The notes under the pieces: generated by a model
The model's database searches: none
What the model was told of the DNA's origin: nothing
The model's input: the letters and a program-made list of their open reading frames with translations, nothing else
Assembly (NCBI GenBank): GCA_016840855.1
Contig: JAEORO010000143.1
Coordinates: 1 to 43,232 of the forward strand
Source of the DNA: Candidatus Thorarchaeota archaeon
Lineage (GTDB): Archaea; Asgardarchaeota; Thorarchaeia; Thorarchaeales; Thorarchaeaceae
Direction of reading: 5' to 3'
Length of the DNA: 43,232 bases
Made by a program: the position numbers and the translations under genes
Shown: in pieces, positions 13,920 through 18,719 of the stretch
How positions within the stretch are numbered: the first letter of the stretch is position 1
Layout of the letters: every line of letters starts with the position of its first letter

Positions 13920-15188
13920 TTAGGCACCTCCCTCCAAGTCTAAATAAACCTGCAATGCCACAGAGTTTGCCTCAGCAAAACTAGTCGGGATATCAGTAGG
14001 TCCAGTGGATGTGCCACAGGCATAGATTCTTTTTGAAGAGCCTTGGTGAGAAACGAACCCATTTTTATCGAGGACATCTCCAAATTCATTCATATCAGAG
14101 GCAAGGGCAACGAGGGGTGAAGCTAATACGACCAAGTCAGATTTTAGCTCTAGTCGCTTTTTGGATTCAGTGTCTTCCACGAGGGTCACCGGGGATTCTC
14201 CTCGGACCACGACTTGGTCAGGTTTTCCTCGCACGAACCGAACACCAAGATCTCTTGCGAGAGTGATATAGTGCTGACTGTGTGAGGGAACTCGTAGGTC
14301 CATGTAGCATAGAGTCACATCTATACCGGAATTTCTCAGCATTATTGCATGTTTGAGACTATATGTACAGCAGGCTTGGGAGCAGTACTCGACTGCACTC
14401 AAATCCCTACTCCCAGCGCAAAGTATCATTGTAACAGAGTTTACAGAACTTCCCGATGCTGTAAGAACTACGCCATTAGTAGGACCAGTGGAATCCAGAA
14501 GCCGAGCGAGCTCTCTTTGCGTTAATACATCTTGACATTTACCATATTCGTACCCTGGCAAGTCAACTGGATTTCTTTCTTCAACACCAGTTGCAATGAC
14601 CACTGCATCAGCAGTCACAGTGCGGCTTGTTGATTTCTGTTCGAGATTGATAGCACCTACTCCGCAGACCTCGACACATTTACCACATTTCGTGCAAGAT
14701 TCCATATCAATAACTGGGATAAGAGGAACAGCCTGCGGAACTGTTCTATAGATTGCTTTTCGCGTCTTTCTTTTGAGGTTCAGCTCATCCAGAGCCTCGA
14801 CATCACATACATTGATACATTCAAGACACACAACGCAGCGGTCAGGTGAAACATATCTTGGTTGAGATCGTAGTGACACCGAAAACTTGCTTTCATTCAT
14901 CTTGATAGATTTGACCTCAGTCTGAGTATGAAGGACCAGTCGTTTCTGTGTCCCAAGTAAGGTTCTATATTGACAACGGCGATGTTTGCCATCGTATAAC
15001 TCCTGACACACATCAAGACAAAGAGCACAGTCATCGGTAGGGAAGACTTTTCCAAGGTGAGTCGATAGCCCTCCAACCGTCACTTCTTTTTCAATAAGAT
15101 GAACATTCATCCCAAGATCTGAGAGCTGTTGCGCAACTTGTATGCCAGCAAGCCCAGCACCAATCACTACAACGGTTTTTGTCATCAT
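13920..15188 (-). CDS. Short HdrA-like flavoprotein lacking the N-terminal and C-terminal ferredoxin domains (QmoA-like size)
   Basis: Starts directly at VVVIGAGLAG; KVFPTDDCALC, inserted ferredoxin (CVVCLECINVC, CTKCGKCVEVC), CAGSRD...YCSQACCTYSLKHA, ACGTSTGPTDI; 422 aa. Confidence 0.9.
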   Translation of the reverse strand: MMTKTVVVIGAGLAGIQVAQQLSDLGMNVHLIEKEVTVGGLSTHLGKVFPTDDCALCLDVCQELYDGKHRRCQYRTLLGTQKRLVLHTQTEVKSIKMNESKFSVSLRSQPRYVSPDRCVVCLECINVCDVEALDELNLKRKTRKAIYRTVPQAVPLIPVIDMESCTKCGKCVEVCGVGAINLEQKSTSRTVTADAVVIATGVEERNPVDLPGYEYGKCQDVLTQRELARLLDSTGPTNGVVLTASGSSVNSVTMILCAGSRDLSAVEYCSQACCTYSLKHAIMLRNSGIDVTLCYMDLRVPSHSQHYITLARDLGVRFVRGKPDQVVVRGESPVTLVEDTESKKRLELKSDLVVLASPLVALASDMNEFGDVLDKNGFVSHQGSSKRIYACGTSTGPTDIPTSFAEANSVALQVYLDLEGGA

Positions 15189-16087
15189 TCACCAACTCCT
15201 ATCTTCTCCAGCAAAGGTTCAATTTTCACTCGATGATACCTTCTCGCATTGCTGACAACAAGATCTGTCTGGCCCATTGCGAGAGCGAGCATTTCTCCCA
15301 AGTATAGAACAGGCATGCTAAATTCTGGGTCTAGATGTTCGACAGCTTTTCTCTGCTGTGTTTCAAGTTGTGTGTAGCAAGTGGGACAAATCAGAACAAT
15401 GGCATCTGCGCCAGCTTCACGTATTTTCTGAAGTTTCTGGGCAGTGAGCTTGAATGATTTTGATTCATCAGAGGGGCCAATAGGAGCACCACAACAAGCC
15501 ATCTTATCTCTGTATTCAACTGGCTTAGCACCAACTAATTTGACTAAATCTTCCATCCATCGTGGATTCTCTGCGTCATCCATATGTGTTGCTTCAATTG
15601 GTCTGACAAGGTGACATCCGTAGTGGGAAGCTAAAGAAAGACCATTGAGAGGATGAGTTATTTTTTTCGCGATTAGATCCAGGCCTACATCCTCATGTAG
15701 TACATGAAGTATGTTCTTTACAGTGACTTCTCCGGTTGCCTCCATTCCAGCTTTCTTAAGTCTCTTGTTGACTCTATCTCGTAAGTTTGAATCTGTTTTG
15801 AGGGTGTGCTTTACAACAGATAATGTGTGAAAGCAGCCACTGCATAAAGCGACTGTGTCACGACGACTAGACTCGCTTACTGCAATATTCCTGGCACCTA
15901 TCGTGAACCACGCTTCAATATCCACACCAGGGAACGTAGTAGGTTCAGGACAACATGTGTGTCCCTCATCCGTGATTAGTTCCACATTCAGATTCTTCAA
16001 GACCTCTCTCATGGTGAGTTCAAAATGGGGAAGTCTGAATGGGATTGTACATCCTGGGAAATAGGTGTATTCTATAGACTTACTCAC
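15185..16087 (-). CDS. hdrB: Heterodisulfide reductase subunit B (copy 2)
   Basis: YFPGC...CCP...CSGC and HYGCHLVRP...CCG...CPTC. Likely start GTG 16087 after GGGGTG. Confidence 0.93.
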   Translation of the reverse strand: MSKSIEYTYFPGCTIPFRLPHFELTMREVLKNLNVELITDEGHTCCPEPTTFPGVDIEAWFTIGARNIAVSESSRRDTVALCSGCFHTLSVVKHTLKTDSNLRDRVNKRLKKAGMEATGEVTVKNILHVLHEDVGLDLIAKKITHPLNGLSLASHYGCHLVRPIEATHMDDAENPRWMEDLVKLVGAKPVEYRDKMACCGAPIGPSDESKSFKLTAQKLQKIREAGADAIVLICPTCYTQLETQQRKAVEHLDPEFSMPVLYLGEMLALAMGQTDLVVSNARRYHRVKIEPLLEKIGVGE

Positions 16088-16607
16088 TTTCAGCACCCCC
16101 ATAGCTAGATTCAGCAGATTCAACCCGCTCAATTGTTCCTAGTTCTTTGAGGATTTTACCAAGCTGTTCAATTGGCGGTGTTCCTAGACTTGGTAGCCCC
16201 ATTTTTTCACGCGTCTTAAGCATTGGTTCGCTGACCAAAATTGTGCGTCCTTCTGAAAGAATGGCTCGTGCTCTATCAAGAGCAGTCTGAGGCGTATTTC
16301 CAGAAAGCAACCCTCTCACTTTAGCAAGCACTAGGATTTCAGGTATCTTCACATGCTCAGGGCATCTGACTTCACACTGTTCGCAAGTAAGGCAAGTCCA
16401 GATTAGTTGCTCCTGTGCTAATGATTCATCTGCTAGAATTAGTTTCTCTAGAAAGAGTCGTGGGTTGAATGACTCGTCTATCGATGCTACAGGACAAGCA
16501 GCTGTGCATCTTCCACATTGGTAGCATCTCAATAGGGTCATACCCTCTGGCTGCAGAAGAATCCACCTACGGAATTCAAGGTCCGATGATATTTCATGAG
16601 CTGTCAT
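16080..16607 (-). CDS. hdrC: Heterodisulfide reductase subunit C (copy 2)
   Basis: CYQCGRCTAACP, FNPR, IWTCLTCEQCEVRCP. Likely start ATG 16607; first gene of the operon. Confidence 0.93.
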   Translation of the reverse strand: MTAHEISSDLEFRRWILLQPEGMTLLRCYQCGRCTAACPVASIDESFNPRLFLEKLILADESLAQEQLIWTCLTCEQCEVRCPEHVKIPEILVLAKVRGLLSGNTPQTALDRARAILSEGRTILVSEPMLKTREKMGLPSLGTPPIEQLGKILKELGTIERVESAESSYGGAESE

Positions 16608-16854
16608 AATAGTCAAACCATGTAAACTGGATGTAAATTCTCGAGTTAAGCGTCCCAAAAAGAATGTCGATTTGTTTCAGATTTTTGTTATAATTCGATT
16701 TATGCCATATAGGAAAGAACCTTGAGATTGGATGTAATTTTAAGAGACACATTTCATCACTCGATGACGAATCATATCACCTACGTAATCCTTTTATTAG
16801 TGCGCTAGCGCTAACCGTGGTAGTTCCTTTAACAAATAGAGGAGAGTAATCACG

Positions 16855-17172
16855 ATCGGAAAAGAAAAGGCAATTGGTGCCCTTATCTTCATATTCGCCC
16901 TGCTGGTGCTAATCTACTACACTTGGGGGCTAGTTATCCTTCAATTATTCCCAGACCTCTCAACCTGGGTTGTTGACACATTTGGTGCTTTGGCACCTCT
17001 ATTCAATCCAAGTCCAGATTTCCTGGTTCAACTACCGATATACCTGGGCGTGGTTCTAATCATGGTCATTGCTATGTGGATTGGTTGGACAATGCTGACC
17101 ACTCCTGCTCCAGAGCCACTTGAGGACTTCGACTTCGATGAGGAAGAAGTTGCAGAGAAGGCTGAAGAGTAA
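16855..17172 (+). CDS. Small two-TM membrane protein, DPM2/PIG-P-like; apparent non-canonical ATC start
   Basis: Frame is open from TAG at 16837 with SD GAGGAG at 16839-16844: (I)GKEKAIGALIFIFALLVLIYYTWGLVIL...FNPSPDFLVQLPIYLGVVLIMVIAMWIGWTMLTTPAPEP + acidic tail. The track start at 16906 would cut the first TM helix. Confidence 0.8.
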   Translation: MGKEKAIGALIFIFALLVLIYYTWGLVILQLFPDLSTWVVDTFGALAPLFNPSPDFLVQLPIYLGVVLIMVIAMWIGWTMLTTPAPEPLEDFDFDEEEVAEKAEE

Positions 17173-17195
17173 TCCTTCAAGTACAGCTAGCGAAC

Positions 17196-17214
17196 AGGGC
17201 CGAAAGGCCCTTTC
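17196..17214 (+). terminator. GNRA-tetraloop hairpin downstream of the DPM2-like gene
   Basis: AGGGCC-GAAA-GGCCCT followed by TTC. Confidence 0.6.
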
Positions 17215-17244
17215 ATCTCATGTTGTTAGTAGATAATATCGTAG

Positions 17245-17597
17245 CTAACTGCTTTTACCTTCATCTGTCATTTTGAGGGCTTTATTAATTAAATCAACAA
17301 CAATTTCACAAAGCCGGTCTGCATCGTCCTAGGTCTTTCTTTCTGCGAAACTATGATAGAGTGGTTCAGTGTCCGATGGACAAATTAACATCCAACCTTC
17401 AGCATATATGTGGAACGTAAACCTGCAGTTTTTAGACGAGTAAACATCTCTCCACCCATTCTCGAGTCACGAGCCATAGCAACATTGTCAGAACCTAATA
17501 CAGACTCGATTACTCTTCCAAGATTCATGACAATGTCAACTGTAGACTCTTTGTTGATTAAACTGCGAATGCCATTAGTGTCAAATATGTTGGTCAG
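17245..17597 (-). pseudogene. Phosphomannomutase/phosphoglucomutase (alpha-D-phosphohexomutase) pseudogene with large internal deletion
   Basis: N-terminal motifs IFDTNGIR (consensus FGTxGxRG) and ARDSRMGGEMF are joined near 17410, in another frame, to the C-terminal motif EGWMLICPSDTEPLYHSFAE (consensus GWxLxRPSGTEPxxRxxAE), with an internal TAG. The catalytic SHNP and DGDAD domains are absent. Confidence 0.88.
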
Positions 17598-17675
17598 GAT
17601 GAGTTCACTCAGGACATAGTGCAAATAGGTCATGACTTAAGAGTTACTGCGAAATTAATGATTCAGTGTTATAAC

Positions 17676-18215
17676 ATGCCTCTATTTGGACGTTCGAAAG
17701 ATTCGGAATACAGAGATGCTGCAAGATTGCTGAAGGAGGGAAAAGTCGCAGAAACAATCAGAAAGCTGAGAGTAATTGTCGAAAAGAGTCCCACACATGT
17801 CAATGCGTATGTGACCCTAGCTGTAGCCCTCATGGAGGCTCAAGAGAAACCTACAAGAGATAGCCCTCAGACCGTAGAGGCATTGGCTCTGCTCGATACA
17901 GCAGCTGCGTTGGACAAAAAGAATCCTATCCCATACTTCAATATGGGTGTGATACTCAGGAAGCTTGGTCTTCTTGAGGAAGCTCTAGTGAGCTTTGACA
18001 AAGCTTTGGAGAGGGAGGAACGGCAACCACTAGCGATAGCTAATATGGCGGAGATTAACTATGAGTTAGAACGGTGGGAGGAAGCAATTCGCCTAGCCAA
18101 ACTGGCTCTCATAAGAGACCCTGGTCTTGAATCATCTATGGGTTGGGTAAGAGTTGCTATGAGAAAAGCGGGAATGTTAGATCATGATGGCAATGTGATT
18201 CATCGTCCAGAGTGA
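17676..18215 (+). CDS. Tetratricopeptide repeat protein
   Basis: Repeated helical TPR patterns (AYVTLAVAL, PYFNMGVIL..LG..EEAL.SFDKAL, AIANMAEINY....WEEA). Likely start ATG 17676. Confidence 0.85.
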   Translation: MPLFGRSKDSEYRDAARLLKEGKVAETIRKLRVIVEKSPTHVNAYVTLAVALMEAQEKPTRDSPQTVEALALLDTAAALDKKNPIPYFNMGVILRKLGLLEEALVSFDKALEREERQPLAIANMAEINYELERWEEAIRLAKLALIRDPGLESSMGWVRVAMRKAGMLDHDGNVIHRPE

Positions 18216-18308: not shown

Positions 18309-18719
18309 ATGTCACAAAAAGGCGAACCAATGTACCGCGGGTATCCCCTGTCAGAGTTGGCTAAGATGAATATGGACTCGCTCATCGAGCTACTACCATC
18401 ACGCAGGAGAAGGACCCTCAAGCGCGGCTTACCCCCACGTCAGAAAAAACTGCTTATGAAACTCAGAGCAGCAAGAAAACAACAAAGGAAAGGTAAGGAA
18501 GTCGTCGTTCGTACTCATTGTCGTGACATGGTCATTCTTCCTGAAATGGTGGACCTTACTATCGCTGTTCACAATGGCAAGGAATTTTCCCGGATAAAGA
18601 TCATTCCTCAAATGATTGGACACGTGCTTGGAGAGTTTGCGGTTACTAACAAACCCGTAAAACATGGAAACCCAGGTATTGGAGCTACCAAATCTTCAGC
18701 TTACGTACCACTAAAATAA
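18309..18719 (+). CDS. rps19p: 30S ribosomal protein uS19 (archaeal S19P / eukaryotic S15 family)
   Basis: [65 protein letters not shown]. Confidence 0.98.

Follow-up and report, generated by a model that had tools for sequence, protein, structure and literature searches.

A two-helix membrane protein of Thorarchaeota with a likeness to DPM2 and PIG-P and a putative non-canonical start codon

Known DPM2- and PIG-P-type subunits and the archaeal protein

DPM2 (Pfam family PF07297) is the small regulatory subunit of the eukaryotic type-II dolichol-phosphate-mannose (Dol-P-Man) synthase and is also associated with the glycosylphosphatidylinositol N-acetylglucosamine transferase (GPI-GlcNAc transferase, GPI-GnT), the complex of which PIG-P (PF08510; Gpi19 in yeast) is a subunit. 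Here we describe a gene on the plus strand of a 43,232-nucleotide contig of a Candidatus Thorarchaeota archaeon (GenBank JAEORO010000143.1; this whole stretch is called the window below), the product of which resembles both proteins. The stretch 16849/16855–17172 is a functional gene for a two-helix membrane protein of about 105 amino acids with an acidic tail, and the protein is a member of a family, mostly single-copy, that almost all of the sampled Asgard and Thermoproteota genomes encode. Taken as a whole, the evidence tips us slightly towards a reading in which this hairpin gene is an archaeal counterpart of DPM2/PIG-P, encodes a glycosyltransferase subunit and is translated from a near-cognate start codon.

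Like DPM2, the window protein is small and consists essentially of two membrane helices, predicted at residues 3–31 and 54–82, that are joined by a loop. In both, going by the earlier note's reading of human DPM2, a glycine close to the beginning of helix 1 precedes a YYT. The window protein differs from DPM2 in several respects: (i) the archaeal loop is longer than that of the Pfam profile and variable, (ii) the archaeal proteins have in addition a strongly conserved WIGWTM-TTPPP.P motif and an acidic tail of some 20 residues, and (iii) the window's genome contains no match to DPM3. With PIG-P, which is the commonest Pfam match of the archaeal family, it shares a hydrophilic C-terminal part, and in Asgard relatives the gene adjoins that of GlmM, which takes part in the synthesis of UDP-GlcNAc, the donor substrate of GPI-GnT. 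It differs from PIG-P in that the window protein itself scores very low against the PIG-P profile and in that matches to the PIGA domain and to PIG-C in the same genome lie under their cut-offs.

DPM2-like helix pairs have been described in archaea as part of a larger enzyme, the type-III Dol-P-Man synthase of Pyrococcus furiosus (PfDPMS). According to Gandini et al. (PMC5526996), the transmembrane helices TMH1 and TMH3 of PfDPMS resemble human DPM2, and its two helix pairs might be the topological equivalents of DPM2 and DPM3. These archaeal helix pairs accompany a Dol-P-hexose synthase of glycosyltransferase family 2 (GT2), in which respect they are comparable to the family described here; the hairpins are fused to the enzyme in PfDPMS, whereas the archaeal family is encoded by a free-standing gene, and the family profile matches no Protein Data Bank (PDB) chain of PfDPMS at E ≤ 10. 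A 2026 paper (PMC12992685) finds the membrane domains of type-III and eukaryotic enzymes to be only weakly similar. Saccharomyces cerevisiae likewise has a very small, easily overlooked membrane protein, Yil102c-A, which is reported to act as a functional homologue of DPM2 and is proposed to assist a Dol-P-Man synthase with a membrane helix of its own; Yil102c-A is compared here by description only.

The archaeal link of DPM2 and PIGP is already in print at the level of gene families: a 2025 Nature paper (PMC12872463) places the DPM2/PIGP split among duplications that preceded the last eukaryotic common ancestor and are "of archaeal origin". An earlier note on this DNA, which had proposed the locus as a DPM2/PIG-P-like membrane subunit from its letters, thus overrated the novelty of the eukaryotic connection. 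That paper is the only one we found to draw the link, and in the literature searched we found none that describes the archaeal protein itself; supplementary tables may list its sequences. New here are the annotation error in the public records of this genus, in which the first helix is cut off, the comparative evidence for AUC/AUU initiation and for a genus-wide loss of the canonical start, and the recurrent link to genes for the supply of UDP-GlcNAc and other nucleotide sugars and to AglJ-like GT2s, which narrows the search for a partner. An apparent GlmM remnant beside the hairpin gene is specific to the window.

The range of the family was sampled in two phyla, the Asgard archaea and the Thermoproteota. 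A profile built from an alignment of 74 diverse members (A1) is present in 88 of 101 Asgard genomes drawn evenly from the window's phylum, among them 39 of the 41 of high quality, and in 21 of 24 families; it is present in 230 of 251 Thermoproteota genomes, sampled evenly from the phylum to which a Bathyarchaeia genome belongs, and two copies are frequent there. The window protein matches A1 with an E of 6.7e-33 (114 bits, profile positions 2–95 of 99). The suggestion of the earlier note that the tail resembles that of a small family widespread in TACK archaea was correct, the two being the same family. A phmmer search of 1.84 billion cluster representatives gave 114 matches at E ≤ 1e-3, and a word-indexed search gave 162 homologues at E ≤ 0.01 out of 176 candidates, the names given being nearly all "hypothetical protein" of Thorarchaeota metagenome-assembled genomes (MAGs). 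A pattern scan of named genomes, made with a narrower alignment (A2), confirmed no fewer than 541 loci; of these, the 80 best come almost entirely from Bathyarchaeia, with single records from Nitrososphaerota, Baldrarchaeota and Thermoproteota. One of the loci (L096) stands in a record titled Methanocella sp. MAG, the genome of which is placed in the phylum pool of the Bathyarchaeia genome; title and taxonomy seem discordant.

Databases describe the family inconsistently, as hypothetical protein, transcriptional regulator, BrkB/YihY or TRAP small permease, and an ESM-Atlas cluster of 88-amino-acid Thorarchaeota proteins bears the automatic name DPM2. NCBIfam holds no family that matches the window protein or the three scanned relatives of plain architecture (P0128, P0127, P0142) at E ≤ 0.01.

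The AlphaFold2 model, computed with 74 relatives, has a mean pLDDT of 91.6 and shows long membrane helices at residues 3–31 and 54–82, with a short helix in the loop (33–50) and another helix in the tail (96–104); residues are numbered from codon 16855, which gives the 105-residue reading. Helix 1 (16861–16947, plus strand, as are all elements of the gene given below) carries the invariant G8 (codon at 16876) and the conserved Y22 (16918). The loop with its predicted short helix (residues 33–50, 16951–17004) falls in the gap-rich alignment columns 30–51, is variable in length and sequence, contains neither lysine nor arginine, and is probably extracytoplasmic. Helix 2 (17014–17100) contains the conserved P61 (17035) and ends in W75-I76-G77-W78-T79-M80, the beginning of the best-conserved stretch of the family, WIGWTM.TTP.P.P (17077–17118), at the putative cytoplasmic end of the helix. 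The acidic C-terminal tail (LEDFDFDEEEVAEKAEE, 17119–17169), predicted to be cytoplasmic, completes the protein. Among the 74 members of A1, the conserved positions are G8 (74), Y22 (63), P61 (62), W75 (73), I76 (71), G77 (74), T82 (64), T83 (70), P84 (72), P86 (67) and P88 (65). The window protein has all of these residues, and has A85 where most members carry proline.

Because the N-terminus is rich in lysine, the loop is free of lysine and arginine and the tail is acidic, both ends of the protein are predicted to be cytoplasmic. In four relatives (P0162, P0191, P0219 and P0212) the acidic tail is extended by an HHH_5 (helix-hairpin-helix, HhH) or DUF4332 domain, from which it follows that the tail probably faces the cytoplasm. 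Such fusions may put a domain of nucleic-acid-binding type at the membrane and may explain the "transcriptional regulator" names. They are the only fusions observed; a search with A1 for longer fused forms gave none at E ≤ 1e-3 among 7,999 candidates, which is weak evidence.

Probable relationship to DPM2 and PIG-P

DPM2 is the best match of the window protein among 24,736 Pfam models (E 4.7e-4, residues 4–82 aligned with profile positions 2–71 of 75), and the locus is the top DPM2 match of the whole genome in a six-frame search (18.6 bits). Of the 74 members of A1, 39 match PIG-P at E ≤ 0.01 (best E 2.3e-10) and 33 match DPM2 (best E 1.7e-8), both of them models that Pfam built on eukaryotic sequences; besides these two and one holin family, no Pfam family is matched by more than two members. 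One relative, P0128, exceeds the gathering cut-offs of both families across the full profiles (DPM2, 32.6 bits for a cut-off of 27.3; PIG-P, 39.8 bits for a cut-off of 39.3), and two more, P0090 (27.9 bits) and P0063 (27.3 bits), reach that of DPM2.

The positions of individual residues add to these scores. In the PIG-P model consensus (PMC3217874), helix 1 has a tyrosine 14 positions after a glycine, and helix 2 opens with Y-W-A-L-A-I-P. Compared by eye with that printed consensus, the archaeal consensus residues G8 and Y22 (G-x13-Y) and the archaeal W-A-x-A-I-P-V are in register with it; the counts for W-A-x-A-I-P among the 74 members are W 37, A 30, A 30, I 32 and P 62. The window protein keeps G8, Y22 and P61-I-Y-L, with F-L-V-Q-L replacing W-A-x-A-I. 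As judged by eye, this match in register is more specific than shared hydrophobicity. As an unrelated control, the family was compared by hhalign with the C-terminal two-helix hairpin of AglJ-like GT2s, which gave a probability of 0.5%; hairpins therefore do not match one another automatically.

Not all of the motifs by which the earlier note had aligned the protein with human DPM2 fared equally well. The glycine and tyrosine of helix 1 and the proline of helix 2 are conserved, as the counts for G8, Y22 and P61 above attest, with a spacing of G-x12-YYT rather than G-x11-YYT; the lack of conservation that the note had named as a refutation is therefore not what the family shows. The supposed F-x-P loop, on the other hand, falls in gap-rich, variable columns, and the glycine of the supposed P-x3-G is G in just 19 of the 74 members and A in 39. 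As for the likeness as such, what stands is that DPM2 and PIG-P are the commonest Pfam matches of the family and that a few members pass; the window protein itself stays under both cut-offs.

Comparison of structures, which the earlier note had suggested, proved uninformative for a two-helix protein: Foldseek of the AlphaFold2 model against the PDB returned a single row (E 4.7), and VIA-align against 48,161 chains returned generic helical hairpins throughout (best Z 5.2). A PDB sequence search with the family profile or P0128 found no chain of DPM2, PIG-P or PfDPMS, the PDB content for DPM2 and PIG-P being uncertain; the best sequence matches were DHHC20 (E 0.04) and a ubiquinol oxidase subunit (E 4.6).

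Several results weigh against a specific relationship. The window protein scores 20.8 bits against DPM2, for which the cut-off is 27.3, and 6.9 bits (E 7.3) against PIG-P, for which it is 39.3. Seven of the ten relatives scanned individually are under the DPM2 cut-off, and P0128 alone passes that of PIG-P. Of 14 ordinary prokaryote control genomes, 9 likewise give a DPM2 match and 9 a PIG-P match at E ≤ 1. Phage_holin_3_6 (PF07332; cut-off 28.4 bits), an unrelated-looking family of two-helix proteins, is matched by 29 of the 74 members (best E 2.4e-6), and part of the DPM2/PIG-P signal is therefore generic. PIG-P matches as strong as e-27 to e-09 have been judged certainly false by the authors who reported them, as arising from two membrane helices alone (PMC2912341).

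These results are what would be expected if the archaeal proteins formed a real and ancient two-helix family whose likeness to DPM2 and PIG-P is a convergent product of generic membrane-helix composition and a few small or aromatic residues. Their job would then be unrelated to glycosylation, for example that of a membrane tether that presents the TTPPP.P(I/L)EE motif and the acidic tail to a cytoplasmic partner. Such an origin would also suit the fact that the best-conserved part of the protein is the cytoplasmic motif past helix 2 rather than the helices, and it would suit the HhH/DUF4332 tails of four relatives and the inconsistent source annotations. It fits less well with the finding that the two most frequently matched of all Pfam models, PIG-P and DPM2, are themselves related, are matched over their full length and are exceeded at the cut-off by some members, nor does it account for the shared register of the G...Y and W-A-x-A-I-P positions. 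An independent phylogenomic study moreover puts DPM2/PIGP among families of archaeal origin (PMC12872463). With the gene neighbourhoods described below taken into account, we regard convergence as unlikely, and as the most serious of the alternatives.

Homology of the archaeal family to DPM2 and PIG-P, for which the two membrane helices provide the evidence, is in our judgement likely. The window protein is probably kin to DPM2 and PIG-P, and we place it in an unnamed archaeal sister family because its scores fall short of the curated thresholds of both Pfam families. Should the homology hold, DPM2 and PIG-P, two accessory subunits of the lipid-linked sugar machinery of the endoplasmic reticulum, would go back to a protein still present in almost every Asgard and TACK archaeon, and their function could be explored in simpler archaea that can be cultivated.

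Gene neighbourhoods and the proposed partner enzyme

Gene neighbourhoods were read at 13 Asgard loci outside the genus of the window and at 20 Thermoproteota loci from complete genomes. Among the Asgard relatives, genes of the phosphoglucomutase/phosphomannomutase (PGM/PMM) family stand beside the hairpin gene at five loci (L036, L039, L040, L045 and L046), and the three of these neighbours that were tested all exceed the NCBIfam cut-off for archaeal GlmM (561, 448 and 602 bits against 439). Other Asgard neighbours are a SIS-domain gene (L036), NTP_transferase genes (L037 and L041), a DegT aminotransferase gene (L041) and a gene for an NAD-dependent epimerase/dehydratase (L034). In the Thermoproteota, NTP_transferase genes directly adjoin the family gene at L134, L135, L136 and L145, epimerase genes and a GT2 gene are found at L142, and a GT2 gene lies within 1.5 kb at L144. 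At L143, the family gene is preceded on the same strand, at a distance of 63 nucleotides, by the gene of an AglJ-like GT2 that has two membrane helices at its C-terminus. Counting genes of nucleotide-sugar metabolism (GlmM, sugar-1-phosphate nucleotidyltransferase, epimerase) and AglJ-like GT2s together, at least one lies within 2 kb at 7 of 12 loci in Asgard archaea and at 7 of 20 in Thermoproteota. The recurrence of such genes in two phyla is a further point against convergence.

The density of matches to models of five neighbour families was compared within 2 kb and beyond 3 kb of the gene. Asgard loci gave 8 matches over the 44 kb near the gene and 1 over the 108 kb far from it; the corresponding figures are 8 (80 kb) and 1 (81 kb) for Thermoproteota and 3 (180 kb) and 4 (447 kb) for Bathyarchaeia.

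The neighbourhoods also supply counter-evidence. With models seeded from the very neighbours that they were to detect, the contrast between near and far is inflated. The gene for ribosomal protein uS19 is a conserved neighbour of the pair of GlmM and hairpin genes at six loci from different Asgard families, and part of the GlmM adjacency may be synteny inherited together with uS19. In Bathyarchaeia, nucleotide-sugar genes are near the family gene at just 3 of 45 loci, and at 37 of 46 (within L047–L126) an AdoHcyase gene on the same strand lies directly upstream, at about 70 nucleotides, a context that fits convergence. In the window, the neighbours are heterodisulfide-reductase (Hdr)-like genes on the other strand and genes for a tetratricopeptide-repeat (TPR) protein, uS19 and a nitroreductase; the sole echo of the Asgard synteny is a GlmM remnant, a match of 63 amino acids, in an 82-amino-acid open reading frame (ORF).

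The AdoHcyase (S-adenosyl-L-homocysteine hydrolase) pairing, one example of which was confirmed with Pfam, is specific to its lineage and has no obvious link to glycosylation.

The 82-amino-acid ORF lies at 17388–17633 on the minus strand and corresponds to an N-terminal piece only of a phosphoglucosamine/phosphohexose mutase (PGM_PMM_I, E 9.8e-8). Because a full GlmM gene adjoins the hairpin gene in five Asgard relatives, the piece looks like a relic of an ancestral adjacency; an intact GlmM-like gene is found elsewhere in the genome (contig C37, 4052–5401). The uS19 gene (18309–18719, plus strand; Ribosomal_S19, E 9.9e-32) stands alone in the window.

In eukaryotes, DPM2 acts together with DPM3 and a DPM1 devoid of membrane helices and raises or stabilises the activity of Dol-P-Man synthase or GPI-GnT, and PIG-P is in a complex with PIG-A (a GT4 enzyme) and PIG-C. 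These partners were sought in the same genome, which is 92% complete, and the outcome again counts against a role in glycosylation. DPM3 (PF08285) gave no match at E ≤ 0.1, which is weak evidence because DPM3 is short and embedded in the membrane. The PIGA domain (PF08288) reached 15.9 bits for a cut-off of 27 and PIG-C (GPI2, PF06432) 13.7 bits for a cut-off of 24.4; divergent archaeal forms of PIG-A and PIG-C may be present. The lack of all three over their cut-offs agrees with convergence. No AglJ- or DPM1-like GT2 was found in the genome by tblastn, by a motif scan or by phmmer with the GT2s of L142 and L143, and the Pfam GT2 search gave a single frame of about 275 amino acids on contig C75. 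Two expectations of the earlier note, a tie to the glycosylation and GPI machinery of the endoplasmic reticulum (ER) and a DPM1-like GT2 in this genome, thus found no match here, and the role is deduced from the neighbourhoods of relatives only. Co-folding of the AglJ-like GT2 of L143 with the adjacent family member (A3, A4) scored 0.00 for a mark of 0.32, which is evidence neither way.

The GT2 frame of contig C75 lies in what ORF reading suggests is a glycosylation island (about 28.3–38.4 kb), with Alg13-like, Alg14-like, GT2, GT4-like, UDP-GlcNAc 2-epimerase-like and Wzx-like flippase genes; the GT2 alone was confirmed by family search.

In the arrangement we favour, the archaeal family would be the counterpart of the eukaryotic DPM2/PIG-P pair, and its members would run from a lysine-rich N-terminus inside the cell through helix 1, the variable outer loop and helix 2 to the WIGWTM-TTP.P.P motif and the acidic cytoplasmic tail. 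The hairpin protein would act as a small non-catalytic subunit beside a membrane-bound glycosyltransferase, stabilising it or tuning its activity, and the partner enzyme would, on the cytoplasmic side, transfer a sugar from UDP-GlcNAc, GDP-Man or a similar nucleotide sugar to a carrier lipid. This role of a glycosyltransferase partner is suggested by analogy and by the gene neighbourhoods of relatives, and we propose it tentatively, at slightly less than even chances; it parallels the fused helix pairs of the Pyrococcus Dol-P-Man synthase as Gandini et al. (PMC5526996) describe them. More specifically, the free-standing hairpin could be an ancestor-like form from before the split of DPM2 and PIG-P, partnering a transferase of GlcNAc or hexose to lipid, in a genus with fixed AUC/AUU initiation throughout; this combination of claims is a long shot. 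If it were true, the linkage to genes for GlmM and sugar-1-phosphate nucleotidyltransferases would be a trace of a pre-eukaryotic GPI-GnT-like or Dol-P-sugar step.

Start codon of the gene and flanking elements

The reading frame of the gene is open from 16840, just after a TAG stop codon (16837–16839), to the TAA at 17170–17172, and reads RRVITIGKEKAIGALIF...AEKAEE. The coding sequence (16849–17172) would begin at an AUC codon, either that at 16849 or that at 16855. The only ORF at this locus with a canonical start runs from a GTG at 16906 to 17172 and encodes 88 amino acids. The contigs assembled from the runs of three studies cover 16822–16892 with no insertion or deletion and no differing letter, and the arrangement at the start is therefore not an assembly error. 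The extended frame of 105 codons postulated in the earlier note is thus real.

For 22 sequences of the genus (the window and 21 of the 24 other members, found by genome search), the region upstream of helix 1 was compared position by position. A Shine-Dalgarno-like element, AGGAGAGTA (16840–16848, plus strand, with the AGGAG core at 16840–16844), is identical in all 22, while the codons downstream of it differ at third positions; in 13 sequences an in-frame stop codon immediately precedes it. At 16849, 12 sequences have the codon ATC, 8 have ATT and 2 have ATG; at 16855, 17 have ATC and the other 5 ATA. From the upstream stop to helix 1, 17 of the 22 lack any ATG, GTG or TTG, and three (L025, L031 and L032) have no canonical start within their first 40 codons. 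The canonical start codon has been lost in this genus of Thorarchaeota.

Helix 1 is translated in these sequences, to judge by how its codons change. Of the 16 codons from 16858 to 16905, 11 columns show synonymous differences only, 2 show non-synonymous differences and 3 are invariant, and G8 is retained in 22 of 22; change of this synonymous-dominated kind places helix 1 under selection at the protein level. The homologues, mostly of 100–125 amino acids with an N-terminus of the form M(G/A/S)K(E/D)K.IG..IF, span 90–100% of the extended query. Outside the genus, their initiator ATG aligns with the ATC at 16855; the ATG of the two genus members is at the equivalent of 16849.

The data point to initiation at AUC or AUU at 16849, 4 nucleotides past the AGGAG, or at AUC or AUA at 16855, 10 nucleotides past it and at the ancestral ATG position; in the model set out above, members of the genus would begin translation at a near-cognate AUC or AUU at one of these two distances from the invariant AGGAG. 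That the start codon in use is non-canonical is, on this comparison of sequences, highly probable. If so, archaea would have in this gene a rare example, with comparatively good support, of non-canonical initiation that has become fixed, and the protein might thereby be kept at a low level.

Gene callers, as the earlier note had foreseen, remove the first helix, because the gene apparently starts at an unusual AUC codon. The closest relatives in public records form a cluster of 32 members (P0007), whose named members are "hypothetical protein" of Thorarchaeota MAGs and of which all 15 listed have 88 amino acids; a call from GTG 16906 drops most of helix 1. One could take these calls at face value, GTG 16906 being the first canonical start codon and the one used throughout the 15 listed records, and regard the frame upstream of it as the decaying remnant of an ancestral N-terminus. 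A decaying stretch would hardly change synonymously in 11 columns and non-synonymously in 2 while keeping G8 everywhere; the GTG itself is GTA in 7 of the 22 sequences, three of the sequences have no canonical start to offer in the first 40 codons, a protein begun there would keep only about half of helix 1, and the invariant AGGAGAGTA stands just 5′ of 16849 and has no equivalent 5′ of 16906. On these comparisons GTG 16906 is rejected as the start, and an 88-amino-acid product is very improbable.

Still less credible is a holin-like small protein that permeabilises the membrane, since the Phage_holin_3_6 matches of 29 of the 74 members (best E 2.4e-6; window protein, E 0.16 and 12.5 bits) include no individually scanned member at the 28.4-bit cut-off (best 24.0), the gene is chromosomal, occurs mostly in one copy and is present almost throughout two phyla, and no viral or lysis gene was noticed beside 33 loci by ORF starts and Pfam checks, without a lysis-specific search.

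Upstream of the favoured start codons, a TATA-box-like sequence, TTTTATTA (16793–16800, plus strand), about 40–55 nucleotides before the coding start, is a candidate archaeal promoter element; a comparable T/A-rich element precedes the gene in some relatives of the genus. A sigma-70 promoter scan, which is not built for archaea, gave no promoter-like site.

Between the TATA-like box and the AGGAG lies a perfect 10-bp palindrome, GCGCTAGCGC (16803–16812, plus strand), the right half of which (GCGCTAAC...) recurs among relatives of the genus. It may be an operator or a feature of the transcript start.

Downstream, 25 nucleotides past the stop codon, a GGGCC-GAAA-GGCCC hairpin followed by TTTC (17197–17210, plus strand) is a weak candidate for the transcript end; it lacks the T-run sought by the terminator scan. 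That scan, likewise not built for archaea, gave one terminator-like site, within the coding region on the opposite strand. A search of 16500–17700 with Rfam returned just two rows at chance level (E ~0.7).

On the far side of the promoter region, three adjacent Hdr-like genes occupy 13920–16658 on the minus strand and are thus divergent from the hairpin gene. They encode a flavoprotein with a 4Fe-4S dicluster (422 amino acids), a CCG cysteine-rich protein (315 amino acids) and a 4Fe-4S dicluster protein (192 amino acids).

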